Shown here: piece after piece, positions 22,382-50,297 of the stretch | Layout: each line of letters opens with the position of its first letter | Position numbering within the stretch: position 1 is the stretch's first letter | Source: Bacilli bacterium | GTDB taxonomy: Bacteria > Bacillota_I > Bacilli_A > ML615J-28 > CAG-698 | DNA length: 64,000 nt | Direction of reading: 5' to 3' | Assembly (NCBI GenBank): GCA_017962745.1 | Contig: JAGCUR010000013.1 | Span: forward strand, 1,046-65,045 | Made by a program: the position numbers and the translations under genes | Notes under the pieces: model-generated | Told to the model about the DNA's origin: nothing | The model's database searches: none | The model's input: only the letters and a program-made list of their open reading frames with translations

Positions 22382-22437
22382 AATCTTTTTATATTTTTAA
22401 GATTTTGGCTTCATATTATTTGCAATTAAACATTGCA

Positions 22438-26300: not shown

Positions 26301-28817
26301 AAATATCAAATTATATAATCTAATAATACTATTTGTATTATCACGAAGCATATTTGATACAATTTCGTTACTTTCAATTTCGCACAAATTATCTTCTTCA
26401 TCATATGCTAAATTAATGGTAGAATCATTTGTATTATTATGGATTTCTTTTAATCTATTATATGCATCATATAGAAAACTAAATTTACTAATATCTGTAC
26501 TAGTACCATGATCTCTATATTTTACTGTCGATAAATTATATTTGTTATCATAATCAAAAATGTATTTATCCCCATTATCACCATACTCTTTTGATTTAAT
26601 TAAAGATAGATGGGGAAGAGATGATGAATCTTCATTTACATATTTAATATTTATTAAACTTTTATATATAATCTGATAGGTATCATCATATATTAATCTT
26701 ACACTTGATAATCGATTATCATTATTATAAACGCTTTGTACCTCATTATCGCGTCTGTCAGTTAAAACATCAACTGCTAAATTAGATCCATAACTTATTA
26801 AATTTTGATCTTTAAGTACATCGTTGTCATCTTTGATGACTACGCTATTTAATAAATTCTTTTGATTATATGAATAAAAATATTGGCTACCATCTGGTAA
26901 TACCTTTCTTTCCACTAAATAATGTTTTGTCCCATTACTTTCATATTCTATTTGATAATCTTCTACTTTTTCTCTAGAAATGAATTCCCCATTTGATTCA
27001 TATTCATATTCTTTTCTTAGATATATTTTTCTATCTTTGAAAACAGATGCATCATACTCATGACTAGTTAATACTTCGTTTGTAACTTCGTTATAATTAT
27101 TGTATTGGTAATTTGTTTTATTGCCAAATAGCCCTGCTTGTTCTTCTATTAAATCATCACTCACTAAGTTATTATCTCTAGTAGCAATATAGTTATAATC
27201 ATAATGCGTTATATTATATTTTCCAAATGCACTAATTACTTTATTGTTTTCATTTATTAAATATTTAGTTTCGTTTTTACCAACTAATATATTCGTAATA
27301 TTATTGTTATTATCATAAGTATATGCAAAACCTGCTATTTGTTTAGTTAAACATATTGAATCAAATGTGTATGTGGCTCCACTTCCTTTTATAAAGAATA
27401 ATACTTTGATTTTGTCAAAACCAACTTCTGGATTAATCTCAAAAAAGAATAATTCTTTATAATCCGTGTTACTTGGCAACGCCTTAGAATAAGTTATCCA
27501 CTCATTGTTACCTTTTAATAATGATATTTTAACTGTCGCGCTAGTTCCTTCTACTTCACATTTAGTTAAACATCTAAATACATAAGTATCTAAAGGCGTA
27601 CCGCTAACATTAATTATTTGATATGTACTGCTTACAAAAGGTATGGAATTGTTTTGTATTTTTAATAGTTTTGAAGATGTTACATATTCATTATTGTAAT
27701 AATAATTAGCATCAGCATTATTTATATATGATACATTAGCATTATCAGACTGCCAAGATGGTGTACTTCCTTGGCAAAAACCATCACTTATTAAATTATT
27801 AATTTCTGTTTGATGTAAATAATTATTTTTAAAAGCATTTGATTTAAAAATAATATTTTTGCGTGAATCAAATCTTTGCCCTGCTATATATTTATTTGTA
27901 TCAATTATATGATTAATTAAATAATTATCATCAAAATAATAATGAGTATGCATATTATTATAACTAACAACTGTGTGATAATTATTTATTAAATTAATAG
28001 AGGTTACATCAAAAGTATTATCATTAGTGCCTCTACCTTCATATACTGTATATGTACCATTTGTTGGGTGTTCTACTAATATTCTTTCTTTTGTGATTGT
28101 ATTGTACATTTGATAAACCGGATCGAATGATAATTGTATATTATTAACTAGATTATTTGTTCCATTATTAATAATATAATAATTAATATTGTTTATATAA
28201 TTTGAAGAAAAAGTAATTATAACTTTGCGTACGTTTACATAATCTTTTCTAATTGTTGCTTCGAGTGCCCCATAAATCATTGGCATAAAATCTATTGCTT
28301 CACCATAATTATTATAAATAGATTCTATGTAGTCTTCATCATAACTGAAATGGATTTTATTAATTGTATTATTTCTATCTTCAATTAATATTAATTTGTA
28401 TGAAGAATCAAATGTATATACACTATCAATATAGACAATCTTTTTTTGATTGTTCTCTATTACCATATATGAAGCAAGGTCAATATTTTCATATCTATTA
28501 TTTTGATTGATGTAATCTTCTGTTGACATATCAGCGTTTGTAACTACATATTTATCATTTTGACTATCGTATGATAATTCTTTCATAATAGACAGTTTAC
28601 AACCAGTTTTAAAATTACAATCAACTTCATTGCTTGAGGAAGTATATATTAAAGATAAATTTATTGGAGATAATTTATAAGGGGAATTATAAAGGGGAAT
28701 TATAAAATGAAGATTATCAAAGTTTTTTGATAAATTAATATACGTGTTAGATCCATCGCTTATAGATGCATTGAAATATGTTCCATATGATTTGATACCT
28801 TGATTAGCCATAATCAT
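23280..28817 (-). CDS. Rhs / YD-repeat polymorphic toxin (1845 aa)
   Basis: Many YD-type repeats (YDxxGN..., YxYDxxGR...). Rhs core end RYYNPNWGRFISYDSV...NLYAYCLNDPVNGCDPEGT. A variable CT of about 175 aa follows. AGGAGT RBS. No signal peptide. Confidence 0.9.
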   Translation of the reverse strand: MIMANQGIKSYGTYFNASISDGSNTYINLSKNFDNLHFIIPLYNSPYKLSPINLSLIYTSSSNEVDCNFKTGCKLSIMKELSYDSQNDKYVVTNADMSTEDYINQNNRYENIDLASYMVIENNQKKIVYIDSVYTFDSSYKLILIEDRNNTINKIHFSYDEDYIESIYNNYGEAIDFMPMIYGALEATIRKDYVNVRKVIITFSSNYINNINYYIINNGTNNLVNNIQLSFDPVYQMYNTITKERILVEHPTNGTYTVYEGRGTNDNTFDVTSINLINNYHTVVSYNNMHTHYYFDDNYLINHIIDTNKYIAGQRFDSRKNIIFKSNAFKNNYLHQTEINNLISDGFCQGSTPSWQSDNANVSYINNADANYYYNNEYVTSSKLLKIQNNSIPFVSSTYQIINVSGTPLDTYVFRCLTKCEVEGTSATVKISLLKGNNEWITYSKALPSNTDYKELFFFEINPEVGFDKIKVLFFIKGSGATYTFDSICLTKQIAGFAYTYDNNNNITNILVGKNETKYLINENNKVISAFGKYNITHYDYNYIATRDNNLVSDDLIEEQAGLFGNKTNYQYNNYNEVTNEVLTSHEYDASVFKDRKIYLRKEYEYESNGEFISREKVEDYQIEYESNGTKHYLVERKVLPDGSQYFYSYNQKNLLNSVVIKDDNDVLKDQNLISYGSNLAVDVLTDRRDNEVQSVYNNDNRLSSVRLIYDDTYQIIYKSLINIKYVNEDSSSLPHLSLIKSKEYGDNGDKYIFDYDNKYNLSTVKYRDHGTSTDISKFSFLYDAYNRLKEIHNNTNDSTINLAYDEEDNLCEIESNEIVSNMLRDNTNSIIRLYNLIFNDSNETFQAFTDSKESNVFAPEHYYEKIRLARSNDHNANYSCFFDLESSNLVYKGDNGGIDEDVITSNVNPLIVSEHCVSIIKLISTQTRLTYDITNKQINGVTVFSKIKAGGIIASFKSSSDINLYVTYNSSTHYISCNYGNNQLINEYIELDTNKIYAISLVLDSNTLHLLINNKDYNCSVSNVTFKKLSIGCTSDNQTYGANLYVYGIIAHRGINFNGVYELSYFGLNYVFGNIEYDGNYTFTGFTSTTLFNQSLLDNYKVLPLFNDFKTLPNMHTLQVDLIDVTKDNNELIDNSFIYNKKSHRCNLYVNKNKVIYQTGLTNSGTILLRFTINENNINEAESKTLFRLFADNQAIKLSIINNKLYLNNNLISNSLVINNDVNTLAFSYYYNNGTFNYRVVLNNNYIDDYALSINLDSNYLKLQLGNTNDLSEPLDGFIEMLCIDRTYKSISSLQNDMMFLNHSLLENKYDSLNRLSKRNIIHDDNLIICNTYNYKKTSYAYDYNGTSKVENEIISYLNNNMTLEYIYDSMNRIKKIKRNNNIIKQYEYNALGYLTHDKNLEQNSAQERVYTYDNSGNILKREIKVNDVVVNTRNYKYEDNLNKNALTRITDENNNDIEIITYDSYTNSLPSTINNTNLTWEGMKLKSYGTISYDYDHLGRRIKKVTDDKSFKYVYDIKGNLVGEKITNLNNNSFYIVKYLYDKDNNVYGFIYNGSTYCYIKDILGVIKYISNSIGNIVLEYTYDAYGNIIDVNHLPGVNLSNINHIIYKSYYIDYENNLYYLKTRYYNPNWGRFISYDSVDYLNANIASGLNLYAYCLNDPVNGCDPEGTFDWGKFWTIVMYIGAVLADPIATMIGAVASTTSDIIAMGNINEEDDIIVKDGNVTLKDSSKIHTPWIKYGYSIYLNYFKEKTRDIIDGSSIGVEFEWLCHNIAYALTKNPRFKDLDVGHTIYNDIIGRTEIDEIVCSAGMQLLYWNFNPFAATQDFYNFIGGYPWQLRKRFTL
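23841..24080. repeat. about 240-bp direct repeat (copy 1) inside the rhs gene, homologous to 22142-22381
   Basis: Judged by direct DNA comparison. Encodes VLEYTYD...AYCLN. Confidence 0.8.
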
Positions 28818-28921
28818 TTACTCCTTTTTCTTTATAATAAAATTATACATTTATAATATTGCATATGTAAACATTATAAAAGAAAAACAATGACTATAGT
28901 TAGCCATTGTCTTTCTTTTTA

Positions 28922-30463
28922 TTAATCATCAGCACCAAGTGCATCTAATCCTTTAGCATTTTCACCAGTATCTTTTTTATGTGGTGCCTTTACAAAGAAG
29001 AATACAGCACCAGCTATACCCATTAGGGTAGCTGAGTAAATTGGTAAAGCAACCCAACTAGTTTTGATGAAGATGAAACCGATTAGAATTGGTGTAATCG
29101 ATTGAGCTAACATACTAGCTGTATAGTATAGTGAAGTAAATCTTCCAAGTTTATCTGATGTACAATAATCAGTTACAAGAGGGAATGAACAAATATGGAT
29201 TAATGATGATCCAAATCCGATTGCTGGTAACAATACGAAGAATAACCAAGGAAGGCTAGCTGCGAATGTTCCATGAGTATTTGATTCAGGAATTAATGAA
29301 TAGATGATGTAACATACACATACTAAGCAAATACCTGAGAATATTGTCCATTTACGACCAATCTTATCAGCTAAGAAACCAGCTGTTAAGAAACCGATGA
29401 TTGAAGCAGCACCTGATACAACTGTCATGATAGCTCCACCGGCACTAGATGTATCTAGCCAGAACATTACATAGTTTGTTTGGAATGTTTCTACGGCATT
29501 TAGTGACATGAACCAGAACATTTCTGCAATTAGAATTAACACTAAGTTACGCATATTGTTCTTTGATAGTTTTTCAGTAGTTGTAACTTGTTCTGCAGAT
29601 TCACCCATCGCATCACCAAGTTTGATTTCTTCATCAAGTTCTTCGTGTAATTTATTTTCTCTTACTTTAAATAATAAAAGAACTAAAGATCCTAGCAAGC
29701 AGACGCTGCAAACAATAAATGGGATTTCTAACATTAATAATGATCTATTAGAACCATCAATATATTTTGTAACTGGAATTACGATAGCTGCAACTGATCC
29801 AACTGCTCCACCAACATAACCAACGATATTGATAATACCATTAGCTCTACTTCTTAGTGGTTTTGGTGTTAAGTCTGGCATTAATGCAACAGCTGGTGAA
29901 CGATAACTCATCATGAAGATGATGATTAAGCACATCATTGCAACCATTCCGACAATCATTCCTAGCATAGCTGCGCTTTCAGCTGCCATTGCTTTAACGA
30001 AGAATAGTGGAACAAATGGTAGAACCATTGCTGTAACAACTGATCCTACGATGATAAATGGCATTCTCTTACCAAGTTTAGTTTTAGTCTTATCTGATAA
30101 GTTACCAAATATAGGCATAATGAATAAAGCAGCGATATTATCAAGTGCCATGATAATACCTACTTTCCATTGAATTTGTAAGTAATCTTGTTCAGTAATA
30201 AAGTTATGTGCTAGCAAGTCTTTCATTGTAGCATAACCGGCAGCAGCACCAGCTGCTACTTGATCAGCATAATCATGTCTAGCAAACATAAATGATAACA
30301 TTGGTGCACAATATGAATTATATAATTGCCATACAAGTAAAATACCAAAGAAGGCAAGTCCAATCCACATCGTACGTTTTAAATAATCTTTATTAAACGA
30401 TATCTTTTTTGTTTCTGTTATTTCCATAAACTCCTCCATAACATAACCATTATACCAATTCAC
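28922..30463 (-). CDS. MFS transporter (with long central cytoplasmic loop)
   Basis: 513 aa, at least 12 TM segments. A charged central loop of about 60 aa. Confidence 0.8.
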   Translation of the reverse strand: MNWYNGYVMEEFMEITETKKISFNKDYLKRTMWIGLAFFGILLVWQLYNSYCAPMLSFMFARHDYADQVAAGAAAGYATMKDLLAHNFITEQDYLQIQWKVGIIMALDNIAALFIMPIFGNLSDKTKTKLGKRMPFIIVGSVVTAMVLPFVPLFFVKAMAAESAAMLGMIVGMVAMMCLIIIFMMSYRSPAVALMPDLTPKPLRSRANGIINIVGYVGGAVGSVAAIVIPVTKYIDGSNRSLLMLEIPFIVCSVCLLGSLVLLLFKVRENKLHEELDEEIKLGDAMGESAEQVTTTEKLSKNNMRNLVLILIAEMFWFMSLNAVETFQTNYVMFWLDTSSAGGAIMTVVSGAASIIGFLTAGFLADKIGRKWTIFSGICLVCVCYIIYSLIPESNTHGTFAASLPWLFFVLLPAIGFGSSLIHICSFPLVTDYCTSDKLGRFTSLYYTASMLAQSITPILIGFIFIKTSWVALPIYSATLMGIAGAVFFFVKAPHKKDTGENAKGLDALGADD

Positions 30464-30536
30464 ACATAAAAAGACAAATCATTTAAGGGCAAATAACAAA
30501 AAAGGCAAGCTCCAGTTTGCCTTTTCTTATTATATA

Positions 30537-31718
30537 TTATTCTTTAGTATAATCATCAAAGTAACCTTGGATGTAAATAACTGGTGTACCTTTATCTCCT
30601 GATCCACTTGTTAAGTCGCATAAGCTACCAAGTAAATCAGTTAAGTTACGAGGTGTAGTACCAAGCGAGTTATGAGCATCTTTAGTCTTTGATTTATTTG
30701 ACTTAATATATTCAGTCATTGCGATTCTTGCTTCTTCACCTTTTAGGTTAGCAAATGTAGTATCAGCTAATAACTTGAATTTTAATTCATTAGGTTGACC
30801 AATTAAGCCTGATGTGAAGAATGGAGAAACAACTGGATCAGCTAATTCCCAAATCTTACCAAATGGATCTTTAAATGCTCCATCACCATAAATGAATACT
30901 TCTACAGTCTTACCATACTTTTCAAACATCTTCTTTTGAATAGCATCAACTGTACCTTGTGAATCTCTTGGGAATAATTTAATCTTACCATTTGATGCAT
31001 AGTTAGAACCAAGAACACCATAGTTTTGATTATATCCACTACCATCAACTGATGAAGTAAGAAAATCATCTAAGCCTAAAACTACTTTAGCGCCAGCTTC
31101 TTTTAAGATACGTTTAGTTCTAGCACGTGTATGGATGTCTCCACAAATGACTTTATCTGTGTATTTTAGAATGGCTGTTGCTTGATTAGCAAAAATAATC
31201 TTAATGTTAGGAGCAGCTTCGCTATATAATCTAACATAATCTGTTTTTGTGAATGGATGAAGTAAATCTTTACCAAATAAATCTCTAAATTCTTTTTCAG
31301 TAAATACTCTATCATATGGGTTTACATGATTATTATCTAAATCATCAAATGAAATGATTGGGTTACCTACTTCATCAGATGGATAACTTAGTTGAACGAT
31401 TAATTCATCTACTCCACTAGCAATTGCCTTTAACATTTCTAAGAAACGATTTCTACTTAAAATCGGAAATACTAAACCGACTGTTCCACTTCCCATTTTA
31501 TTTCTTACATCTTTTGAGAATTGTTCGATTGTAGCATAGTTACCTTGTGCTCTAGCTACAACTGATTCAGTAATACCAATAACATCACGGTCGCATACTT
31601 TAATACCACTTTCATCAATTGCTTTCATCAATGTATCACTAACAACTGATACAATGTCATCGCCCTCTTTAATAACGGGCATTCTTACACCTCTAACAAC
31701 AGTTCCAAAATAACGCAT
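30537..31718 (-). CDS. CofE-like (F420-0:gamma-glutamyl ligase family) protein of unknown function
   Basis: 393 aa. The N-terminus MPVIKEGDDIVSVVSDTLMKAIDESGIKVCDRDVIGITESVV resembles the CofE fold. Glycine-rich motif LGTTPRNLTDLLGSLCDLTSGSGDKGTP near the C-terminus. Confidence 0.5.
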   Translation of the reverse strand: MRYFGTVVRGVRMPVIKEGDDIVSVVSDTLMKAIDESGIKVCDRDVIGITESVVARAQGNYATIEQFSKDVRNKMGSGTVGLVFPILSRNRFLEMLKAIASGVDELIVQLSYPSDEVGNPIISFDDLDNNHVNPYDRVFTEKEFRDLFGKDLLHPFTKTDYVRLYSEAAPNIKIIFANQATAILKYTDKVICGDIHTRARTKRILKEAGAKVVLGLDDFLTSSVDGSGYNQNYGVLGSNYASNGKIKLFPRDSQGTVDAIQKKMFEKYGKTVEVFIYGDGAFKDPFGKIWELADPVVSPFFTSGLIGQPNELKFKLLADTTFANLKGEEARIAMTEYIKSNKSKTKDAHNSLGTTPRNLTDLLGSLCDLTSGSGDKGTPVIYIQGYFDDYTKE

Positions 31719-31737
31719 TTATTTATCCCCTTTTTCA

Positions 31738-32094
31738 TTAAATTCTTTCTACAGTTCTAGTCGCTACAATATCAACACCAAGTCCAAGGACGTTTTTAAT
31801 TACCGCGTCACCACATTTAATCGGTGCTTTAACACTTACTTTATTAATTTCAGTCATCACATCAAAGATTTTACCTTTAGGAATTGGCGAGGCTGTTGCT
31901 ACCGGTAAGCGAATTATTTCTCCATCAGTAATTTTGACTGTGGAAGAAATCATTCTAGTTGGGTTAGTAACTTCGGCTATGCCGTAAGCTTTACCTCTAG
32001 CGCAAGAATTACCAGTTACATTTAAGTTTTCATCTACTTCTAAATGGCATCCTCTAGGACAACTAATACATATAAGTTTTCTTACTTCGCTCAT
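31738..32094 (-). CDS. DUF1667 domain protein
   Basis: 118 aa. CxxC...C motif ICISCPRGCHLEVDENLNVTGNSCARG. Conserved partner of GlpA-like FAD oxidoreductases. Confidence 0.75.
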   Translation of the reverse strand: MSEVRKLICISCPRGCHLEVDENLNVTGNSCARGKAYGIAEVTNPTRMISSTVKITDGEIIRLPVATASPIPKGKIFDVMTEINKVSVKAPIKCGDAVIKNVLGLGVDIVATRTVERI

Positions 32095-33341
32095 TATTCT
32101 TCCACCTCCAATGTAACATTATCTAGGTTAGTTAAGATACTAGAATCAATCTTAACATTTTCCATTTCTGATGGAATCATATAAAGTTTCTTAACTCTCT
32201 TAATTTCTTTATCGCCTTGTTTTACAACTAAATAACAATTCTTAAGTGGCTTTCTAACTCTAAATGAAATACTAGCCCCATTAGAATTAATCGATTGTGG
32301 TAAAACATAACCGATTAGATTTCCATTAACTACTTTAATCTTTGGTAAATCTTCTAATTCACCTTTAATATATTTAGCACAGTTTTCACCAGCTTTAGTA
32401 CCTTCAATACTTACGAAGTCTACAAGGTCATGAACATGTAACCCATTTCCGCACGCAAATACACCTGGAATCGATGTCTGTAAATTAGAATCAACTACGG
32501 CCCCTTTAGTAAGCGGGTCAATTTTAACTCCAGCTTCTGTAAGTAGATTAATTGAAGGAATTAAACCAACTGATAAAAGTAATGTATCGCATTCAATTTC
32601 GCGATCTGTCCCTGGTACAAATTGCAATTTATCATCAACTTCGCAAAGAATGATTTTTTCTAACCTATCTTTACCAATAATATCTTTTACAGTGTGATGT
32701 AAGTAAAGTGGAATATCATAATCATTTAGACACTGCACGATATTTCTGTTTAAGCCATTTGAATATGGCATGATTTCCGCTACACCGATAACATTAGCGC
32801 CTTCTAGCTTCATACGTCTAGCCATGATTAAACCAATATCACCACTACCTAAAATGAATACATTATTACCAATCTTTAATCCATCTACATTTAAATACTT
32901 TTGGGCAACTCCGGCACACATTACACCACTTGGTCTATCGCCTGGAGTATTGATAGCGCCTCTTGTTCTTTCAATACAACCTGCAGCCATGATAATTGAT
33001 TTAGTAGCCACTCTTAAATAACCATCGGAAGCATTTGAATAAGTAACAAATAACTGGCCATTATCATTTTCAATCTTTAGAACCATTGATTGAAGTTTAT
33101 AATTAATACCTCTATCTTTTACTTGTTTAATAAACCTCTCCGCATAAGCTGGTCCTGTTAGTTCTTCTTTAAATGTTTGAAGACCAAATCCAGAATGAAT
33201 GCACTGAAGTAATATTCCTCCTAGAAAATCACCTTTTTCTAGAATCAAGATATCTTTAATACCATTATCATAAGCCGATATAGCGGCAGCTAAACCTGCT
33301 GACCCACCACCGACAATAATTACATCATATGATTTTTTCAT
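32094..33341 (-). CDS. FAD/NAD(P)-binding pyridine nucleotide-disulfide oxidoreductase family protein
   Basis: 415 aa. N-terminal GxGxxG VIIVGGGSAGLAAA and a second Rossmann motif ILGSGDIGL. Confidence 0.8.
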   Translation of the reverse strand: MKKSYDVIIVGGGSAGLAAAISAYDNGIKDILILEKGDFLGGILLQCIHSGFGLQTFKEELTGPAYAERFIKQVKDRGINYKLQSMVLKIENDNGQLFVTYSNASDGYLRVATKSIIMAAGCIERTRGAINTPGDRPSGVMCAGVAQKYLNVDGLKIGNNVFILGSGDIGLIMARRMKLEGANVIGVAEIMPYSNGLNRNIVQCLNDYDIPLYLHHTVKDIIGKDRLEKIILCEVDDKLQFVPGTDREIECDTLLLSVGLIPSINLLTEAGVKIDPLTKGAVVDSNLQTSIPGVFACGNGLHVHDLVDFVSIEGTKAGENCAKYIKGELEDLPKIKVVNGNLIGYVLPQSINSNGASISFRVRKPLKNCYLVVKQGDKEIKRVKKLYMIPSEMENVKIDSSILTNLDNVTLEVEE

Positions 33342-34759
33342 TATTTGCCCTCCTTAGTAGGTCCAAGCACGATATATGAATTAGCATTAGCATACATGAT
33401 ATCTTCTGGATTCTTATTAAGTTCTTTAGCTAAAATATCTAAAACAATTGCTTGGCAGAATCCGCCTTGGCATCTACCCATTCCTGGGCGGCATCTTCTC
33501 TTAACGCCTTTAATAGTTGTAGCTCCGCAATTTCTTCTAATGCAATCTAAGATTTCACCTTCTGATACTGCTTCGCATCTACAAACGATACGACCAAATT
33601 TAGGATCCTTTTTGATCAATGCATCGCGTTCTTCGATGCTCATCTCTTCCATTCTAATTACTTTTCTCCTAGATGGCTTAAACTGAGGATTAACTTCTTT
33701 ATCTTTGATAAATTCACTAACCATCTTAGCAATAGCAGGTGATGCAGTCAGTCCTGGTGATTCAATACCTGCCGCATTAATAAAGCCATCTGCTTCATTA
33801 ATAATAAAGTCATGAGTATCACCAACTGCTCTTAAACCAGCAAATTCAGTAATTTGTTCACGATATGGAATATTATCAACTAGTCTAGTCGCATTAGTTC
33901 TAACATTATCTAAGACATCTTTATTAGTTCTTACACTATCAAATTCTTCAATAAATTCACTAGATGGTCCTACTAAATAATTATCATGAGTAGTAGGAGA
34001 TACTAGTACACCTTTACCTTTATCGCTAGGGACATTAAATAAAGTATGTTTTACATATCCATTTTGGAAATGATCTAAAACATAATATTCACCACGTCTA
34101 GGTCTAACGCTAAATGTATGTGGATTTACTAAATCATTGATCTTAGATGAATATACACCAGCGGCATTAACTACATACTTTGCAAAGTATTCGCCTTTGT
34201 TAGTTGTAATAATGAAGCCATTATCTTTTTTAATGCTAACTACTTCTTCAGCTAAATGTAAGCTAACACCATTATCCATAGCATTTTCCATTGCCGCTAC
34301 AACTAATTCAAATGGATTGACAATACCAGCTGTTGGGCAAAGTAAGCCACCTTTAGCACTTGCAGTAATATTAGGTTCAATTTCTTTTAATTCTTTTTCA
34401 TCTAATACTTTATAAGGTACACCGTTTGCTTCACTTCTTTTCGCAAGTTCAGCAAGCGTTACTAATTCTTCTTCGCTATTAGCAACAGTAATTGAGCCAA
34501 TTCTTCTAAACTGAACATCAAGTTCCTTACACATTGCTTCATACATCTTATTTCCTTCCACGTTAAGCTTTGCTTTAAGCGTACCTGGAACTGGATCATA
34601 TCCAGAATGCACAATTGCACTATTAGCGCCACTGGCACCACAGCCAACATCGATTTCTTTTTCTAGTACTAAGATATTTAATTTATATTTAGATAATTCT
34701 CGAGCACATAGTGCACCAATTACACCAGCACCGATTATGATACAATCATATCTATTCAT
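33341..34759 (-). CDS. FAD-dependent oxidoreductase (anaerobic glycerol-3-phosphate dehydrogenase GlpA-like) with C-terminal BFD-like [2Fe-2S] domain
   Basis: 472 aa. CIIIGAGVIGALCA GxGxxG motif. C-terminal CRCEAVSEGEI...CRPGMGRCQGGFC. Confidence 0.8.
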   Translation of the reverse strand: MNRYDCIIIGAGVIGALCARELSKYKLNILVLEKEIDVGCGASGANSAIVHSGYDPVPGTLKAKLNVEGNKMYEAMCKELDVQFRRIGSITVANSEEELVTLAELAKRSEANGVPYKVLDEKELKEIEPNITASAKGGLLCPTAGIVNPFELVVAAMENAMDNGVSLHLAEEVVSIKKDNGFIITTNKGEYFAKYVVNAAGVYSSKINDLVNPHTFSVRPRRGEYYVLDHFQNGYVKHTLFNVPSDKGKGVLVSPTTHDNYLVGPSSEFIEEFDSVRTNKDVLDNVRTNATRLVDNIPYREQITEFAGLRAVGDTHDFIINEADGFINAAGIESPGLTASPAIAKMVSEFIKDKEVNPQFKPSRRKVIRMEEMSIEERDALIKKDPKFGRIVCRCEAVSEGEILDCIRRNCGATTIKGVKRRCRPGMGRCQGGFCQAIVLDILAKELNKNPEDIMYANANSYIVLGPTKEGK

Positions 34760-35381
34760 TTTCCACCTCGCTACAAAATTTTGTTAAGTCATCATAACTT
34801 ACTTTCGTAACATCATATAGGTCTTTTTTATAAGTAGTAATAATGCTTAGGTAATCATCAAAACAAAGAGCTACTTGTTTAGATGAATTTAAAATATCAT
34901 TAATTGATTCTTTAGTTAGATTAGAGCCAATCCCTTCACCCGTCATCTTAAAGAAGCTTTCTTTACGAACAAAACAGTCAATTAAATATTCGCTACCTTT
35001 ATGTTCATTATAAAATTCATATTCTTCTTTAGTTAGGATTCTTGTGGCGATCTTATCATCGATGTTTCTTTTCTTTTCTAGATCAATACCAACTGGGTTA
35101 TTTGATACTGCTACCATTACAGCCCCAACCGTATGGGTAATTGAAAAATAAACATCGCTTGCATGAGGCTTACCCGCCTCATCATATGCATATTGCTTAG
35201 GAACATCAAAACCATATTCATAAAATGCATATTGAAGTAAAACTTCAGCCGCAATGCGCTCTATTTTCACTTCTTCATTAGTGATTAGTTTAAGTTTTTC
35301 TTTCCTAACATCAGAAAATACTTTTTCAAACTTATCATCAATTTTAAAATCATTTAATTTTAAATAATAAATATTTACCAT
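34752..35381 (-). CDS. 4'-phosphopantetheinyl transferase (Sfp type)
   Basis: 209 aa. FSITHT...GIDLE motif pair characteristic of the PPTase superfamily. Confidence 0.7.
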   Translation of the reverse strand: MVNIYYLKLNDFKIDDKFEKVFSDVRKEKLKLITNEEVKIERIAAEVLLQYAFYEYGFDVPKQYAYDEAGKPHASDVYFSITHTVGAVMVAVSNNPVGIDLEKKRNIDDKIATRILTKEEYEFYNEHKGSEYLIDCFVRKESFFKMTGEGIGSNLTKESINDILNSSKQVALCFDDYLSIITTYKKDLYDVTKVSYDDLTKFCSEVENE

Positions 35382-35416
35382 CTATATCACCACAATAAAT
35401 CATTATACTATTTTTT

Positions 35417-36241
35417 TTAAATTACTCCATAATTTTCTAGTGCTTTTTTAACACCATGATTATCATTAGTATCAGTTACAAACTTTGCGACCTTTTTTAC
35501 TTCTTCTACGCTATTACCCATCGCAATACCGTAGGCAGCATCTCTAACTAATTCGTAATCATTCATCGAATCACCAAAGGCCATTATCGCATCTTCTTCA
35601 ATACCATATAGCTTAGCTACTTCATATAAGCCTTTATATTTATTTGATTCTTTTTTGATTACTTCAATAAAGCATGGCATTGATACCATCACATTAAAAT
35701 AAGGTTCAATCTTTTCTTTAATTAGCGGGAATAGTTTTGCAATAATATCTGGGTCAGCATCAATCATAAATTTACAAGCATCATTGATACCACTATCTAA
35801 GAAGTCACCAATAAATAATTTATTCTTATTTAATCTTACTTCTAAATCTAGATATTCATTGTTAGCTGTTGCATATACATTACCATTATGGTGAACGCAT
35901 AATGCTAAGTTACTAACATCGATTGTCTTTTCCAGATCTTTGATCGCTTTTTTTACTATATCCATAATAAAGAATAGTTCATCTTTATTTAAACTATTCT
36001 CGTAAACTATTTCTTCAGTTTTTATATCGTAAATTACCGTGCCGTTATATGCACAAAAGTAACCATCGCTAATACCTAAATCGTTATAGTATTCTTTAGT
36101 TCTTTTAGAAAATGGTCTACCAGAACAAAGTACTACTTTAACCCCATTAGCAATTGCTTTTTTAACCGCTTCTAAATCTAAGATATTTTTATTAGAATCT
36201 AAAAGCGTATCATCTAAATCAAAACCAATTAATTTAATCAT
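35417..36241 (-). CDS. Cof-type HAD-IIB family hydrolase (sugar-phosphate phosphatase-like)
   Basis: 274 aa. Motif I FDLDDTLL. C-terminal GDSMNDYEL. Confidence 0.85.
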   Translation of the reverse strand: MIKLIGFDLDDTLLDSNKNILDLEAVKKAIANGVKVVLCSGRPFSKRTKEYYNDLGISDGYFCAYNGTVIYDIKTEEIVYENSLNKDELFFIMDIVKKAIKDLEKTIDVSNLALCVHHNGNVYATANNEYLDLEVRLNKNKLFIGDFLDSGINDACKFMIDADPDIIAKLFPLIKEKIEPYFNVMVSMPCFIEVIKKESNKYKGLYEVAKLYGIEEDAIMAFGDSMNDYELVRDAAYGIAMGNSVEEVKKVAKFVTDTNDNHGVKKALENYGVI

Positions 36242-37136
36242 TTTCTATTTCTTCAATCTTTAATTCTAAATCGGTAGTGCGAACAAATTCTTGATTTAAT
36301 TTCTTTGATGTAGCTGATAAACTTTGAAGGCTAGCAAAGCTTGAAGCAATACCCCATTGTAATTGTTCATCAAATACACAATCTAGTTTAGCAGCAAACC
36401 CGGCAAGTAGAGCGTCTCCTGCTCCGTTTGTATTAACAGGAGTAATTACTTTGTGAGTTACCTTATATAAGCCACTTGGATCTTGATATAAAAGCCCTTG
36501 GTCGCCTAAGCTTACGATAACGCTTTTAACACCAGCGCTTCTTAAAGCTTTGCAAATCTTAAGCGGATCTTTTTCGCCAGTTAAAGCTTCACCTTCAAGT
36601 GGTGTAACTTTAAGCATATATATTTGATCTAAGAATGGCTTTAGTTTAATCGCTTTTGCTGAAGATATCGCATCTACAATCTTACGATTATCTTGGTCAA
36701 ATAAAAATTCGAGAACGGATTCGTTAAAGTTTGTATCGATGATGAAGATATCATCTGGTCTAAATGGAATATTGTGAACATCGCTTTTTGTTAATAGTTC
36801 GTAACTTTCCATTGAAGCAAGCCCAAAATATAAATCATTATTATCATCGATTACATTTAGATAACTTGATTGTGGTTTATTTGTTATTTTACAAAATTGT
36901 AATCTAATTCCAAGACTTGCTAAGCTATTAAACATCGCTTGACTAATCTCATCTGAACTAAATACGCTGACAAAGAATACTTCGCAGCCAAGCCTAGCCA
37001 AGTTTTCCGCGATGTTTCTGCCAACGCCACCATAACTAAAAGAAATTTTACCAATGTTTGAATCGTGCAAAACTAGTCCAGAAGGTACAGTAACATTGAT
37101 ATCTACATTAGCTCCACCAAATACAAAATAACGCAT
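36234..37136 (-). CDS. PfkB family carbohydrate/nucleoside kinase
   Basis: 300 aa. N-terminal GG motif FGGANVDI. C-terminal TNGAGDALLAGF anion-hole motif. Confidence 0.8.
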   Translation of the reverse strand: MRYFVFGGANVDINVTVPSGLVLHDSNIGKISFSYGGVGRNIAENLARLGCEVFFVSVFSSDEISQAMFNSLASLGIRLQFCKITNKPQSSYLNVIDDNNDLYFGLASMESYELLTKSDVHNIPFRPDDIFIIDTNFNESVLEFLFDQDNRKIVDAISSAKAIKLKPFLDQIYMLKVTPLEGEALTGEKDPLKICKALRSAGVKSVIVSLGDQGLLYQDPSGLYKVTHKVITPVNTNGAGDALLAGFAAKLDCVFDEQLQWGIASSFASLQSLSATSKKLNQEFVRTTDLELKIEEIEND

Positions 37137-37145
37137 GGTCCCCTC

Positions 37146-38027
37146 CTAATCGATATTAATTAACTCGTATGCTCTTTCACCAAAACCAAGTCTTGATGCA
37201 GCATCTAAAATATATTCACCATTTTGACGATTTACACGCGCCATGAAATGGTCTTTTCCTTTATCATTTGATTTCTTTACTAAATCAATACATGCTTGAT
37301 CAATCGCAATTGGATCAGTTGATGCTAGGATACCAATATCTGCCATGCATGGATCTTCTGCTACTTCGCAACAATCACAGTCAACCGATAAATTGCACAT
37401 AATATTAATATATACTACTTTATCTTTAAATAAATTATGTACTGCACTTGCCGCATCAGCCATTGATTCTAAGAAAGCATTTTGCGGAGGTAAATCATTC
37501 CACAAGTTATATTGGTCGCAAGTTCTACCAGCTGAATGAATATAAGCTTTACCAGCACTTGATGCACAACCAATTGAAAGTTGCTTTAAAGCCCCACCAA
37601 AGCCACCCATTGGGTGCCCTTTAAAGTGTGAGCATACTAATAAGCTATCATAGTTAAGTAAGTTTTTACCAACATAGTCTTTTTTAATAGTAATCCCATT
37701 TGGGATATCTAACTCTACATCAGGTCCTACTTCATCCATTAAATCTACTTTATAATATTTAGTCCATTCATGCTCAGCTAATAACTTTAAATGTTTATCT
37801 GATTCATTTCTAGCTCCACCGTATGCCGTATTACACTCAACAACGGTTCCGCCAACTAGTTTAACTAGTTTTTCCATAAATTCAGGATGTAAATAGTTTT
37901 GGTTACCATGTTCTCCTGAATGTACTTTAAATGCTACTTTGCCTTCTAGTCTTTTTCCAACTTGATTAAATATTTTAACTAAACTGTCCGGTGTAATTTC
38001 TTTTGTAAAGTAAACTTTTGCTTTCAT
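37146..38027 (-). CDS. DUF362 domain protein (putative Fe-S cluster binding)
   Basis: 293 aa. Cys cluster CNLSVDCDCCEVAEDPC. Confidence 0.65.
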   Translation of the reverse strand: MKAKVYFTKEITPDSLVKIFNQVGKRLEGKVAFKVHSGEHGNQNYLHPEFMEKLVKLVGGTVVECNTAYGGARNESDKHLKLLAEHEWTKYYKVDLMDEVGPDVELDIPNGITIKKDYVGKNLLNYDSLLVCSHFKGHPMGGFGGALKQLSIGCASSAGKAYIHSAGRTCDQYNLWNDLPPQNAFLESMADAASAVHNLFKDKVVYINIMCNLSVDCDCCEVAEDPCMADIGILASTDPIAIDQACIDLVKKSNDKGKDHFMARVNRQNGEYILDAASRLGFGERAYELINID

Positions 38028-38111
38028 CTTATAACTCCTATATATTAATTTTACATTATCTAAAAATAATTGTTAATAAAAACATTTATTATAAGAAATA
38101 AAAATGTTTTC

Positions 38112-38149
38112 TTAAAAAACCAAAAAAGCCTTGGTTAGTATACCAAGGC
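38112..38149 (-). terminator. strong rho-independent terminator downstream of the MscS gene
   Basis: Perfect 8-bp stem GCCTTGGT/ACCAAGGC, followed by TTTTTTGGTTTTTT on the minus strand. Confidence 0.75.
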
Positions 38150-38157
38150 AATAGATT

Positions 38158-39168
38158 TTAATTTTTCTCTTCTAAATCTTTCGATAATTGTCTTTGTTCC
38201 TTAACAAAATTTTCTACTTCTTTATTGGAAGTAAAGTTTTGATCTTTCTTTTCTTCAAGTTTAGAAATAGTAACTTGAGGGAATGGAACATTAATTCCGT
38301 TTTCATCAAACATCATCTTAAGTTCTCTATTTAGCGCTCTTTTAACAATATATAAATCTTCTTCTTTACATTTAGCCATGAATAATAGGTTTACTGAAGA
38401 TGCAGCAAGCTCATCAACTCCTTTATAGAATGGTCCTTCGATAATTTCTGGAACATTTGCTCTAATTCTATCTAAGTTATCCATAATAACTTTTTCAACT
38501 TCTGGAATTGGTTTACCATATTCAATACCAATGTAAGCAACAGCGATTGATAATTGTTTAGTTTGGTTAACAATTGAAGCGATATGTGAATTGTTAACAA
38601 TCTTTACATTTCCACCCCAGTCGATAATCTTTGTAGTTCTAATACCAATTTCTTGAACTTCACCACGCCAGTTATCTACAACTACGATATCGCCAACTTC
38701 AAAATCACCTTCAAATACAATAAATACACCCGCAATAATATCGGCGATTAAGCTTTGAGCACCTAAACCTATAACTAATCCTAAAATTCCAGCACTAGCA
38801 AGTAGAGTTCTACCATCTACACCAAAAGCAGATAATATTAGAAGAATCGCTACAATCGCGATGGCATATTTAATAAAACTAGCAAGTAGCTTAACGATAG
38901 TTAAGCTTCTTTTGTTGTTAGCAAACAACTTTGTTAAGACAAATTTAAATACAATATAAATAATATATCCAAAAGTTATTATTTCAATTGATCTAATAAC
39001 TGCAGGAATCTTACGATATAGTGTATCAATTGCTTCATGCCCAACCGGGTTATTATTAAATATTGAATTTTCTGAGAATAGTTGTGTAGAAAATATAAAA
39101 CTTAAAACACATACTATAATACCTATAATTAGTAATACTAATCCTGTAACATTAATTTTCTTTTTCAT
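38158..39168 (-). CDS. mechanosensitive ion channel family protein (MscS-like)
   Basis: 336 aa. Three N-terminal TM helices and an MscS beta-domain region (GDxVxV...GxVxxI). Confidence 0.8.
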   Translation of the reverse strand: MKKKINVTGLVLLIIGIIVCVLSFIFSTQLFSENSIFNNNPVGHEAIDTLYRKIPAVIRSIEIITFGYIIYIVFKFVLTKLFANNKRSLTIVKLLASFIKYAIAIVAILLILSAFGVDGRTLLASAGILGLVIGLGAQSLIADIIAGVFIVFEGDFEVGDIVVVDNWRGEVQEIGIRTTKIIDWGGNVKIVNNSHIASIVNQTKQLSIAVAYIGIEYGKPIPEVEKVIMDNLDRIRANVPEIIEGPFYKGVDELAASSVNLLFMAKCKEEDLYIVKRALNRELKMMFDENGINVPFPQVTISKLEEKKDQNFTSNKEVENFVKEQRQLSKDLEEKN

Positions 39169-39169
39169 A

Positions 39170-41179
39170 TTATCCTCCTAATTCTAATGTGAAATTACTC
39201 CAATTTTGTGGTTCTAAATTTGTGCCATCATTTTCAAACAAGATGAAACAGCATTCTCCATCTTCCAATTCTTCTAAAGACACAAACAATCTTGTTCCTT
39301 CAAACATTTCGTTAGCATCTATAAACACTGGATATTCGTTACCATTTTTATTTAACAATAAATAACTCCAGCTATATTCATTTTCTCCAACGTTCAATGA
39401 GATATATGGTTCTGGATATTGATCTTTATCATACAAATGTTCAACACTAACTGGAACATAAGTGGCTGATTGATATGTGATAATACCACTAGACACCATG
39501 GCTGTCCCATTGGCATATACTATATAACTATAATTGCTTCGATATTCTCCGCCATTATCATATAAAATAGAATACTTTTGGCCAGTTGCACTTTCATGCA
39601 TTTCTAAATCAAATGATTTATTATATCCCTTATCACTAGTTAGATTAATGCTTAAAGCTTCGCTTTCATCATATTCACCTATGTCCACAATAGCTAATAT
39701 GTTGTGTATAAAAGATATAATTTGTACATTACTTATACTAGATGACGCTACATTATAAACAATATTCTTTTCATCATAGTAAACACTATAATTATCAATT
39801 AATAATTCATACCTATAATATTCATATTCGCTAATTTGATAATTTAATTCATAATAATACATATCATCAAATTGTGGGTTAGTGATTGTTTCTTCTAAGA
39901 AAACATTATCATCTTTATAAACAACTAATTTAACTATCTCATTTTCACTAAATTCACTAAAAGCTAAATTAACATATACATCCTTATTTTCATTATTAAC
40001 GTCTAATTCATATAATACTGTATCCCAAATATAGCCTAATACTATTTCTTCTTGGTAAATAACATTATTATTAGCATAAATGACTGCATCATATTTACCA
40101 TCAGTTAAATTGTTTACTTCACCATCGCATCTATAATATTCTTCTTCTTGAATTATATTATCTAATTCAATGCTATTAACTAGATTACCATCTAAATATA
40201 AATTTAAGCTAATTATTTCATTATCTACATAATTATCAAAATCAATATAGTAATAGAAAGTTAAATCACCATATTCATATCCAAAACAACTAGCAGTTGT
40301 ATAAGTTGGCATTTGTACATCTACTTTATTAATCATTTCTAAATTATTATTAATATATAGACATACATTATATTCTCCATCACTATTTACGCTAAATGAA
40401 TTATCATAAATATAACTATATTCATTTTGCATAACTTGATCAATTGGAATCGTTTCTATAATCTCTCCTTCTTTTTCAAGTTGTAAAAGAACATAATCAT
40501 CACTATTAAACTTGCTAAATTCTACGCTTACACAAATTAGTTCATCAACATAATTAGCATCCATTTTACTTACTATGGTTTGTGAATTCCTCGATTCAAT
40601 TACATAATCATTTTCATAAAGTGTATTAAAACCGCTTACTACACTTATATTATAAGATACGTTTTCTTTTAGCCCTTCCACATCCGCAAAATACATGTAT
40701 TGTTTTTCTTCTTCAGGGCCTTCCTCAAATGCTTCAATTTTATAAACTCGATCAGTAAATTCATTTTTAATTACCAATTCTAAGTTATCTTCTTCATAAT
40801 ATTCTGAAAATATTATGCTTATAAATAACATATTTTCGTAGTCTTCAATAAAGACATCATTAATTTTACTCTTTGGGCCAAAGATAAAACTAGTACCCAT
40901 AACTACTGCCATTGTAATAACAAGGGCTGAAGATAATATTTTAGTAAATATACTTGATAACTTTCTTGCTTTCAGACTTGATTTATTATCATTAAATTCT
41001 TTAAAGGAAGTGAATTCTTGGAATTCTCTATTGGAATAATTAGCACTATTATATTCATTATAATCATGATATTCGTTGGTAATAGCTTTTAGGCTATTAG
41101 AGCTTTCGATCTTATTTTTTTCATTATCCAAGCTAATCACTTCCTTTCTTATATAATCTAAGTTCATTATAACATACAA
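39170..41179 (-). CDS. hypothetical membrane-anchored surface protein (Tyr/Asn-rich beta-repeat ectodomain)
   Basis: 669 aa. About 80-aa cytoplasmic N-terminus, one TM (ILSSALVITMAVVMGTSFIF), then repetitive Y/N/E-rich modules. Confidence 0.55.
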   Translation of the reverse strand: MYVIMNLDYIRKEVISLDNEKNKIESSNSLKAITNEYHDYNEYNSANYSNREFQEFTSFKEFNDNKSSLKARKLSSIFTKILSSALVITMAVVMGTSFIFGPKSKINDVFIEDYENMLFISIIFSEYYEEDNLELVIKNEFTDRVYKIEAFEEGPEEEKQYMYFADVEGLKENVSYNISVVSGFNTLYENDYVIESRNSQTIVSKMDANYVDELICVSVEFSKFNSDDYVLLQLEKEGEIIETIPIDQVMQNEYSYIYDNSFSVNSDGEYNVCLYINNNLEMINKVDVQMPTYTTASCFGYEYGDLTFYYYIDFDNYVDNEIISLNLYLDGNLVNSIELDNIIQEEEYYRCDGEVNNLTDGKYDAVIYANNNVIYQEEIVLGYIWDTVLYELDVNNENKDVYVNLAFSEFSENEIVKLVVYKDDNVFLEETITNPQFDDMYYYELNYQISEYEYYRYELLIDNYSVYYDEKNIVYNVASSSISNVQIISFIHNILAIVDIGEYDESEALSINLTSDKGYNKSFDLEMHESATGQKYSILYDNGGEYRSNYSYIVYANGTAMVSSGIITYQSATYVPVSVEHLYDKDQYPEPYISLNVGENEYSWSYLLLNKNGNEYPVFIDANEMFEGTRLFVSLEELEDGECCFILFENDGTNLEPQNWSNFTLELGG

Positions 41180-41235
41180 ATAACTAACTTAGTATCAATA
41201 AAAAAAGAATTGATGAAACATCAATTCTTATAATA

Positions 41236-41311
41236 TGGTGCCCGAGACAAGATTTGAACTTGCGACCTACGCATTACGGGTGCGTTGCTCTACCAGCTGA
41301 GCTACTTGGGC
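41236..41311 (-). tRNA. tRNA-Thr (anticodon CGU)
   Basis: Cloverleaf folded by hand: acceptor GCCCAAG/CTCGGGC (one A.C mismatch), U8 A9, D-arm GCTC-AGCTGGTA-GAGC, anticodon arm ACGCA-CCCGUAA-UGCGU, T-arm GCAAG-TTCAAAT-CTTGT, encoded CCA. Position 33 is C, which is unusual. Confidence 0.7.
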
Positions 41312-41318
41312 ACCGATA

Positions 41319-42608
41319 TCAATCTAGATTCTCATACATGTAATTATTCCATGGATGATTCTTATAAAAGTTAACATGAAGTCTATGCATTTCTTCAATC
41401 AATATGCTCCACTTCATCATGCAGTGACTATCTGGGAATATATCCACATATTCATTATCTACATATATATTAAAACTTTGCGCATCTTGAATTGAAATTA
41501 CTGTGTATAATTGTTTCCAGTTTAAATCAAAATCATGTTCTTTAGTATCTTCACCTCTAAAATGTAAGCCATCATGATCTAAGCTTAATAATCCATTTGC
41601 TACTATTTCACTAGTAGCTTTGTGTTTTAAGTAATGATCATTAGGAAGTTTACCCAGTTTAACATGATCACTATAAACATAATTTGGATCTTTACGAATA
41701 TCTTTGATGATTTGAATTCTCTCGCCATTCACCCATTCCGATATCGTATTAGGAATTACGCAACTATCATCATATGGATGGAAATCATAATAATCATCTA
41801 GTTCAGCCCCGTTTCCGCAAGCTTCACAAGTAAACTTGTTACCCTCGCCTTTCATCTTAAACTCAGCACCGCACTTAGGACATCTATAAAGTAAATCTTC
41901 TAAATGGTAGCACATACGGCCATTACCTTCATATTTATAATGCTTTTCTTTATTCCATGCATATTCATCATGCCTAAAAGCATTATTAATTATTTCATCA
42001 ATTTCTTCGCTTGATTTAGCTTCTAAGTCAGCTGGTGATAAAAGTAGCGAACTTGTAGCATAAGTATTACCGCTTCTAATATCTAAGCATGCTTTAGTGT
42101 TAAGTAAGTGTTGACCTCTTAAACGTACAAAGTAAACTGGTAATTTATAATGTTTAAGCATATGGCCAGTTCCGGGAACGATTGGTTTATTCATACCGTC
42201 ATTAGTGGCTAAGCCTTCAGGTGCAAAAGCAATGCAAGCACCAAGGTTGATCATCTTACGCATGATACGTGTTGATAAGATATCGTTAACATAAGGCTTT
42301 TTAGGTAAAACATTATTATGCTTAAAAGCAAAATGTAAATGTGATCTAAAGAATTCCCCATAAGAACATAAAATGTTAACTCTTCTAGGGTATGCTATCT
42401 CCATTACATACATATGATCTAGTCTTGATAAATGATTGAAGATTACAAAGCAAGGGCCCTTGCAATCGTTAATATCATCAATCTTTTCGTAGTGAGGATG
42501 ATACTTCCTACCTACAATTCTCATAACATTACGGTAAATAAAGTACCATAACCTTTTAGTTATATGATAATTACGATTAGTAATTTCTTTTCTTATATCT
42601 TTTTTCAT
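41319..42608 (-). CDS. lysophospholipid acyltransferase (PlsC-like) family protein with C-terminal zinc-ribbon-containing extension
   Basis: 429 aa. HX4D motif FNHLSRLDH and APEG block. Later CPKCGAEF...CEACGN. Confidence 0.7.
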   Translation of the reverse strand: MKKDIRKEITNRNYHITKRLWYFIYRNVMRIVGRKYHPHYEKIDDINDCKGPCFVIFNHLSRLDHMYVMEIAYPRRVNILCSYGEFFRSHLHFAFKHNNVLPKKPYVNDILSTRIMRKMINLGACIAFAPEGLATNDGMNKPIVPGTGHMLKHYKLPVYFVRLRGQHLLNTKACLDIRSGNTYATSSLLLSPADLEAKSSEEIDEIINNAFRHDEYAWNKEKHYKYEGNGRMCYHLEDLLYRCPKCGAEFKMKGEGNKFTCEACGNGAELDDYYDFHPYDDSCVIPNTISEWVNGERIQIIKDIRKDPNYVYSDHVKLGKLPNDHYLKHKATSEIVANGLLSLDHDGLHFRGEDTKEHDFDLNWKQLYTVISIQDAQSFNIYVDNEYVDIFPDSHCMMKWSILIEEMHRLHVNFYKNHPWNNYMYENLD

Positions 42609-46563: not shown

Positions 46564-46566
46564 AAG

Positions 46567-48473: not shown

Positions 48474-48477
48474 TTTC

Positions 48478-50260: not shown

Positions 50261-50297
50261 CACTTTTTGCCTCATTTTTTTAGCTATTTTCTATATC

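Follow-up and report, generated by a model that had tools for sequence, protein, structure and literature searches.

A tightly packed eight-gene operon from a Bacilli genome, probably a lineage-specific mosaic of independent modules

A 2025 Communications Biology paper on archaeal glycerol-3-phosphate (G3P) dehydrogenases (PMC11962113; preprint 10.1101/2024.02.29.582781) defines a family, “GlpTk,” that includes sequences from Thermotoga maritima as well as Clostridium perfringens and in which a G3P dehydrogenase of the DAAO superfamily is accompanied by a pyridine-nucleotide-disulfide oxidoreductase (NOX) and a DUF1667 protein (MOX). According to that paper's summary of Koga et al. 2019, the three GlpTk-NOX-MOX proteins form a soluble complex in vitro, and the paper further reports that the three are fused in Giardia and Entamoeba. 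Three genes with the same domains in identical order lie within a run of eight minus-strand genes, at positions 30537-38027, in the 64-kb stretch of Bacilli DNA that we analyzed here (the window). An initial annotation had read these eight genes, with an MFS gene downstream, as an operon for one unknown pathway. We conclude instead that the cluster is probably a lineage-specific mosaic operon of independent modules and not one eight-step pathway.

Other described systems resemble single parts of the locus. Archaeal L-proline dehydrogenase (1y56), heterotetrameric sarcosine oxidase, and HcnABC likewise bring together a DAO-type dehydrogenase subunit, a Pyr_redox_2-type partner, and a small Fe-S/Cys subunit. 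CofE and the N-terminal domain of FbiB (PF01996; 2phn, 2g9i, 7uld) belong to the same fold family as the product of the last gene, with which the region of their N-terminal “IKEGDD...” motif aligns; in a review of F420 biology, Firmicutes figure only as producers by prediction, not by verification. Pseudouridine kinase (PsuK/YeiC) provides both the best NCBIfam match and the best distant homologues (35-37% identity) of the cluster's PfkB kinase.

We assigned families with Pfam and NCBIfam profile searches, comparing NCBIfam scores with the curated equivalog cut-offs. The coordinates given previously for the eight genes match the list of open reading frames (ORFs) of the window exactly, and both profile collections agree with the family names given then:

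37146-38027, minus strand: DUF362 protein, 293 aa (Pfam PF04015, E 9e-48)
36234-37136, minus strand: PfkB kinase, 300 aa (Pfam PfkB, E 4e-34)
35417-36241, minus strand: Cof-type HAD-IIB phosphatase, 274 aa (Pfam Hydrolase_3/Cof; TIGR00099, 172 bits, cut-off 137)
34752-35381, minus strand: Sfp-type 4'-phosphopantetheinyl transferase (PPTase), 209 aa (Pfam ACPS PF01648, E 2e-12)
33341-34759, minus strand: DAO + Fer2_BFD [2Fe-2S] subunit (PF01266, E 3e-73, aa 5-349; PF04324, E 8e-9, aa 391-444)
32094-33341, minus strand: Pyr_redox_2 flavoprotein (NOX), 415 aa (Pfam Pyr_redox_2, E 4e-30)
31738-32094, minus strand: DUF1667 protein (MOX), 118 aa (PF07892, E 3e-33), with a CxxCxxxC...C motif in the translation
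30537-31718, minus strand: long CofE-like protein, 393 aa (Pfam F420_ligase PF01996, E 3e-49)
28922-30463 as the longest ORF, likely 28922-30427, minus strand: MFS transporter (Pfam MFS_1/MFS_2)

Identical proteins are deposited in GenBank as MBP5551179-MBP5551186, from a metagenome-assembled genome labeled “Bacilli bacterium,” where the CofE-like protein bears the name coenzyme F420-0:L-glutamate ligase and the PfkB protein is called hypothetical. From the DUF362 gene to the CofE-like gene, the seven junctions measure +9, -8, +35, -8, -1, -1, and +19 bp. Starts and stops had been said to touch or overlap at five sites; they do so at four of these junctions, and the remaining site (37136-37146) is a 9-bp gap.

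In the organization that we propose, one promoter (about 38115-38048) would drive an eight-gene transcript ending at 30527-30498, and its genes would constitute at least four functionally independent modules. The first would be a stand-alone, Cys-rich DUF362 protein. The second, a translationally coupled PfkB kinase and Cof phosphatase, would be followed by an Sfp-type PPTase that serves carrier proteins generally; the third would be a GlpTk-NOX-MOX G3P dehydrogenase; and the fourth would be the long CofE-like protein, which appears as a conserved singleton in many gut anaerobes. Dense one-strand packing of the genome would have gathered these modules, which descent within one genus would then have kept together, and the MFS gene downstream would be a transcription unit of its own.

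Conservation and packing of the cluster

The comparison of gene neighborhoods that the initial annotation had suggested as a check on its single-pathway claim found the genes together inside one genus and, in the sets of loci described next, not outside it; the outcome that the annotation itself had named as refuting thus holds everywhere but within that genus. We examined 80 CofE-like loci (L008-L087; 56-61% identical to the window protein) in GTDB species genomes of Clostridia, Erysipelotrichaceae, Negativicutes, and other groups, and 80 metagenome loci encoding DUF362 proteins (60-70% identical; 45 of them 6 kb or longer), each set being the best 80 among the matches listed. Not one of the CofE-like loci had a homologue of another cluster gene better than 28% identical within 10 kb (tblastn; E no higher than 1e-5, coverage no lower than 50%), and none of the DUF362 loci had another cluster gene within 9 kb. 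Around the trio of DAO/BFD, Pyr_redox_2, and DUF1667 genes the outcome was the same: in four homologous loci (L088-L091) the trio was tight and intact every time, the flanks differed, and a CofE-like, DUF362, PfkB, Cof, or PPTase gene flanked it in none of them.

Within the lineage, the cluster occurs in complete and in partial forms. Two relatives, L007 (CofE-like protein 93% identical) and L173 (PfkB 80%), have all eight genes in the same order. A third, L172 (PfkB 84%), has seven of the eight; the DUF362 gene and the MscS gene upstream of it are absent, and PfkB is immediately preceded by a tRNA-Thr(CGU) gene (L172:9743-9818), a terminator, and a promoter, evidence that the operon's 5' end was recently rearranged. 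In L001 (CofE-like protein 78%) only the trio and the CofE-like gene are found, with TrkAH and a Flg_new protein upstream and no DUF362, PfkB, Cof, or PPTase gene within 21 kb, while the downstream synteny is that of the window (ABC-F, BipA, DegV, U32 peptidase). The window and all four of these relatives have the trio next to the CofE-like gene, 2-25 bp apart, and these genes form the stablest part of the cluster. The two halves of the operon also diverge at different rates, the first four genes being 59-84% identical among relatives and the trio and CofE-like gene 85-93%.

These observations bear directly on the possibility that the eight genes, alone or together with the MFS gene, form one novel, genus-specific pathway of small-molecule or cofactor modification or salvage, in which the kinase, phosphatase, PPTase, flavoprotein dehydrogenase, and CofE-like ligase would all work on one scaffold. 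Tight packing, translational coupling, and the lack of internal terminators are what such a pathway would lead one to expect, as are the shared order in L007 and L173 and the seven genes retained in L172, and several members (DUF362, the long CofE-like protein, the divergent PfkB) are uncharacterized. However, the single-pathway reading is left unsupported because co-location outside the genus was nil (0/80, 0/80, and 0/4) and because L172 and L001 are natural variants lacking the DUF362 gene and the first four genes, respectively. The much faster evolution of those four genes, the self-contained function already known for the trio, which moves as a unit, and the position of the MFS gene behind a terminator, in a slot that different paralogues occupy in different relatives, also speak against a single pathway, and we consider it very unlikely.

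Gene orientation offers no guidance here. Of the 48 window ORFs that reach 80 aa, the minus strand carries 47, so the co-orientation of the eight genes is uninformative. Close spacing is likewise common: 23 of the 46 same-strand junctions in the window measure 40 bp or less and 12 overlap, and outside the cluster the figure for 40 bp or less is 16 of 39. Overlaps join unrelated genes too, as between BipA and ABC-F (-8 bp) and between arginine deiminase and pyroglutamyl peptidase (-8 bp).

Besides the composition of the two 80-locus sets, several features weigh against a mosaic of independent modules. Seven successive junctions of 35 bp or less are denser than this background, with a probability of 0.41^7, or ~0.002, under a crude independence model. 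In addition, the gene order and the PfkB/Cof and PPTase/DAO overlaps have been kept in L007, L172, and L173, in which PfkB is 80-84% identical, and there may thus be some selection for co-expression. The run of seven junctions supports co-transcription, not a common function.

The DAO/BFD, Pyr_redox_2, and DUF1667 trio

The initial annotation had described the trio as recurrent but functionally unassigned. Its recurrence is borne out by the four homologous loci, but a type for it has already been described, and we think it quite likely, from gene order and family matches, that the trio is a GlpTk-NOX-MOX G3P dehydrogenase module. The gene order is DAO/BFD, Pyr_redox_2, and DUF1667, with 1-bp overlaps at 33341 and 32094, and it is kept in L001, L007, L088-L091, L172, and L173. 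The catalytic subunit belongs to the DAO (DAAO) superfamily and additionally carries a C-terminal BFD-like [2Fe-2S] domain. Its best NCBIfam match, over its full length, is NF033460, type 2 G3P oxidase (313 bits), followed by L-2-hydroxyglutarate oxidase (174 bits), and its best match in the PDB is GlpO of Mycoplasma pneumoniae (4x9m, E 1e-41). His51 of the window protein aligns with His51 of 4x9m, the proposed catalytic base, although this residue is not substrate-specific, since it is common to L2HGDH. Among the homologous loci, L091 has a 58% identical DAO/BFD homologue 16 bp after an FGGY (glpK-type) kinase gene, and L089 has a GDPD gene near the trio.

Three points count against this assignment. 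The score of 313 bits is below the NF033460 cut-off of 460; no glpK or glpF (FGGY or MIP family) is present among the ORFs of the 64-kb window; and the homologous loci inspected were four in number, with DAO/BFD subunits 58-65% identical to that of the window. The window trio also differs from the described complexes in the extra BFD domain of its catalytic subunit and in being embedded in a longer operon of unrelated genes, and the Bacilli members of the type are known from sequence alone.

The heteromeric DAO/Pyr_redox_2 flavoenzymes provide a second comparison. The B chain of the archaeal L-proline dehydrogenase structure (1y56_B) matches the catalytic subunit at E 3e-17, and the SoxA family matches the NOX subunit. 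However, these matches are far weaker than that to G3P oxidase, the BFD domain of the window protein is fused to the catalytic subunit, and the substrate suggested for the window trio is G3P, not an amino acid.

If the trio is a G3P dehydrogenase, the DAO/BFD subunit would convert sn-glycerol-3-phosphate to dihydroxyacetone phosphate on its flavin adenine dinucleotide (FAD). By analogy with the family, we infer that electrons would pass from this FAD to the BFD [2Fe-2S] domain and the Cys motif of the DUF1667 protein, then to the FAD of the NOX subunit, and from there to NAD+/O2 or some other acceptor.

The CofE-like protein and the remaining modules

On the strength of its profile matches, the CofE-like protein is a member of PF01996 but not a bona fide F420 ligase. 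The 218-position Pfam F420_ligase profile is stretched over residues 10-385 of its 393, and against the CofE equivalogs TIGR01916 and NF009809 it scores 50-51 bits, with cut-offs of 180.65 and 274, respectively, from a match of ~60 N-terminal residues. The match of the Archaeoglobus fulgidus CofE in the PDB to the CofE-like protein reaches only E 4e-5. In a phmmer alignment, Asp109 and Glu208 of that enzyme face Leu236 and Ser373 of the CofE-like protein; we take these two residues of A. fulgidus CofE to be Mn-binding. Nor are there F420 biosynthesis genes (cofC/cofD/cofGH or fbiC) among the ORFs of the window or among the neighbor clusters annotated around its homologues in the 80 species loci.

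The protein is also built differently from CofE, which is a single-domain protein of ~250 aa, whereas the AlphaFold model of the 393-aa CofE-like protein (mean predicted local distance difference test score, 74) contains a well-predicted alpha/beta insertion of ~130 residues at about aa 80-215. When this model was compared with the PDB by Foldseek, CofE alone was significant (2phn, E 2e-6, target-normalized template-modeling score 0.51), and the inserted domain gave weak, generic Rossmann-like matches that provided no functional lead. For this protein, the structure-based check proposed in the initial annotation recovered the CofE fold alone. A literature search for a described function of CofE-like proteins in Firmicutes returned nothing specific.

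What is clear is that the family is large and strongly conserved. It comprises >8000 clusters at 90% identity, and many residues are invariant in an alignment whose sequences share 61-93% identity with the window protein. The neighbor clusters annotated around the 80 CofE-like loci include PP-loop ATPase, ABC transporter, MatE, TrkAH, and similar genes, among which the PP-loop ATPase is the sole recurrent partner; this gene is missing from the window. It encodes a 336-aa protein of the GMP-synthase type (GMP-synthase C-terminal domain) and lies directly 3' of the CofE-like gene, on the same strand, in 11 of the 80 loci (e.g., L044:11206-12216). The PP-loop ATPase is a possible functional partner of the long CofE-like family.

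The stable adjacency of the CofE-like gene and the trio raises the potential that the two are functionally tied in this lineage, with the CofE-like protein modifying, for example, a cofactor of the complex (flavin or deazaflavin-like) or one of its substrates. The short gaps between them in the window and its four relatives agree with such a tie. However, the trio is absent from all 80 CofE-like loci and the CofE-like gene from all four trio loci, the commonest neighbor elsewhere is the PP-loop ATPase, and an adjacency limited to one clade is explained by descent; we regard the tie as unlikely. Alternatively, the long CofE-like family, which stays 56-62% identical in gut anaerobes of many classes, could be a near-housekeeping, nucleotide-dependent amide-bond ligase with a non-F420 substrate that was recruited into the dehydrogenase transcript in this genus, a placement that may point toward a flavin or a phospho-metabolite; or the PfkB, Cof, and PPTase genes, the trio, and the CofE-like gene could be a real new pathway. 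We would call these proposals, taken together, unlikely.

The DUF362 protein shares with the CofE-like protein the habit of standing alone. It carries a Cys-rich CNLSVDCDCC...C motif and belongs to a family in the same Pfam clan as LarA/DUF2088, and a search of PDB sequences with it returned no meaningful relative. The 80 metagenome loci (L092-L171) encode stand-alone DUF362 proteins of ~290 aa with an invariant HFKGHPMGG...SVDCDCC motif and no consistent neighbors; when the neighbors were clustered, no cluster was found in >9 of the 80 loci. Judged by these loci, DUF362 is an autonomous, widely conserved singleton gene. Separately, in the lineage “Firmicutes bacterium CAG:313” (L003:10001-14945 and L004:10001-14948), a CofE-like gene (62% identical) is followed 3 kb downstream by a DUF362 gene (59% identical), with a cellulase gene and an aldo/keto reductase-ferredoxin gene in between. 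This is the only proximity of two of the eight families that we found outside the genus, and it is probably due to chance, given the 0/80 in both large scans.

The PfkB kinase has a narrower distribution. Its homologues are 80-98% identical within the genus and then 37% or less: six same-genus cluster representatives are at 80% or more, and the next, at 35-37%, are mostly pseudouridine kinases. The motifs GG and NTNGAGD, known from the ribokinase superfamily, are kept in the protein, which scores 116.8 bits against the NCBIfam pseudouridine-kinase equivalog, far under the cut-off of 540. By these comparisons, it is a lineage-specific member of the family nearest to pseudouridine kinases, although it differs from PsuK in being paired with a Cof phosphatase instead of the PsuG glycosidase, and no PsuG/Indigoidine_A family member is found among the window ORFs of at least 150 aa. 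The 8-bp PfkB/Cof overlap is conserved in L007, L172, and L173, which suggests that the two form a coupled kinase/phosphatase pair acting on a small molecule (a nucleoside or sugar). No gene of the cluster has diverged further than Cof, which is 59-71% identical among relatives. We also considered a ThiD/Cof-like pair for salvage of hydroxymethylpyrimidine (HMP) and rejected it, as Cof scores 52 bits against a threshold of 336 for HMP-PP phosphatase.

The PPTase translation shows the GID and KES motifs. As the initial annotation had observed, the enzyme comes without a carrier protein: no PP-binding domain is found in any of the eight ORFs, which leave no more than 35 bp between neighbors across 30537-38027. 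A PPTase with a dedicated carrier, in a cluster of the nonribosomal peptide synthetase or polyketide synthase type, was considered and set aside, since the ACPS domain is present but the cluster has no carrier, nonribosomal peptide synthetase, or polyketide synthase gene. From its domain content, the PPTase is probably a general housekeeping activator of carrier proteins.

A broader theme could nevertheless unite the PPTase and the trio. Since G3P is the backbone of phospholipids, the locus could belong to a glycerolipid or glycerol-phosphate supra-operon, in which the PPTase activates acyl carrier protein or a teichoic-acid carrier, the dehydrogenase balances G3P for phospholipid and teichoic-acid synthesis, and an acyltransferase-like gene (41319-42608) and a DegV fatty-acid-binding protein (15830-16675) join in. 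In L007, L172, and L173, the orthologue of the 429-aa ORF at 41319-42608 has a weak PF01553 acyltransferase match, a DegV gene does lie downstream, and the 8-bp PPTase/DAO overlap is conserved. However, the ORF in the window itself has no Pfam match at E 1e-5 and is separated from the operon by the MscS gene, a 669-aa ORF, and a terminator, while the DegV gene is >13 kb off, behind unrelated genes, and there is no PPTase gene beside the trio in L001 or in L088-L091. We give this theme only a slim chance.

Boundaries of the operon and its surroundings

The signals at the two ends of the cluster and before the MFS gene are as follows:

38112-38149, minus strand: intrinsic terminator of the upstream MscS-like gene (8-bp GC-rich stem and T-run)
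38048-38115, minus strand: a pair of sigma-70-like candidate promoters, with an AGGAG ribosome-binding site, before the DUF362 start (consensus matches)
30498-30527, minus strand: intrinsic terminator 3' of the CofE-like gene (hairpin and T-run; free energy [dG] -13.3 kcal/mol, z -2.5)
30449-30477, minus strand: candidate promoter of the MFS gene, of the extended -10 type (TTGTCT-17-TGgTATAAT)

The upstream terminator, already recognized in the initial annotation, consists of a hairpin at 38149-38128 followed by a T-run (dG -15.5 kcal/mol, z -3.8) and, as a predicted signal, marks the 5' boundary of the unit. The promoter candidates that follow it, TTAAGA-16-TATAAT and TTAACA-17-TAAAAT, were identified by consensus match alone. 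At the other end, the terminator at 30527-30498 predicts the 3' boundary, and a comparable, stronger hairpin with a T-run (dG -19 to -29) is found 3' of the CofE-like gene in L007, L172, and L173. A scan of the sequence inside the eight-gene unit found no terminator-like hairpin with a convincing T-run. Given the tight gaps, the absence of an internal terminator, and the terminators at both ends, the eight genes plausibly form one transcript, and on this point the original description of an eight-gene operon holds up well. Rfam models (E 1 or less) matched nothing in 28500-39500, neither a riboswitch nor a leader or other element that could have given a clue to a ligand.

The MFS gene is a different matter. 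It had been placed 73 bp downstream of the cluster, a distance that is correct for the longest ORF, but the gap holds a terminator and a promoter-like site that were overlooked earlier, and the gene is therefore probably a separate transcript. The GTG at 30463, which begins the longest ORF, falls within the predicted promoter and is for that reason an unlikely start; the ATG at 30427, with GGAGG ahead of it, is the likelier one, which would make the protein 12 residues shorter and the true gap 109 bp. The MFS slot is 89-91% identical in L007 and L172 but only 40% (L173) and 46% (L001) identical in the other relatives, i.e., occupied by different paralogues, and in L007 an opposite-strand SASA/CBM gene sits between the operon and the MFS gene. 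As a separate matter, we considered whether the transporter could be a GlpT-like G3P carrier for the dehydrogenase and rejected this, with 53 bits against an OPA-family cut-off of 408 and a best match of the GPH/MFS_2 type.

Several features of the surrounding window deserve mention in their own right. GC skew is negative over the whole 64 kb, which together with the 47 minus-strand ORFs indicates an extreme leading-strand gene bias. Between the MFS and ABC-F genes lies a low-GC block (23-27%; 20377-28817) containing a 1845-aa ORF with YD/RHS-like repeats recognized by eye and no Pfam match at E 1e-4, followed downstream by three ORFs (385, 287, and 290 aa) that are also without a Pfam match; it looks like an inserted toxin/immunity-type island, because the MFS and ABC-F genes adjoin in L172 and L173. 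Upstream of the cluster, at 39170-43534, ORFs of 669, 429, and 309 aa have no Pfam match at E 1e-5. Farther along, at 45253-50275, genes for arginine deiminase, ornithine carbamoyltransferase, and carbamate kinase make up an arginine deiminase pathway that is kept in L172 and is tightly packed with genes for pyroglutamyl peptidase and a pyridoxal phosphate-decarboxylase-like protein.

The cluster is a worked example of how, in compact and strongly strand-biased genomes, co-directional genes can overlap without belonging to one pathway. The view of the DAO/Pyr_redox_2/DUF1667 trio as unassigned is corrected as well, since the trio matches a type of enzyme complex already described. Since the long CofE-like and DUF362 proteins stand alone in nearly all other genomes, this operon does not reveal their functions, and our results draw attention to both as widespread, highly conserved, and uncharacterized families of gut anaerobes.

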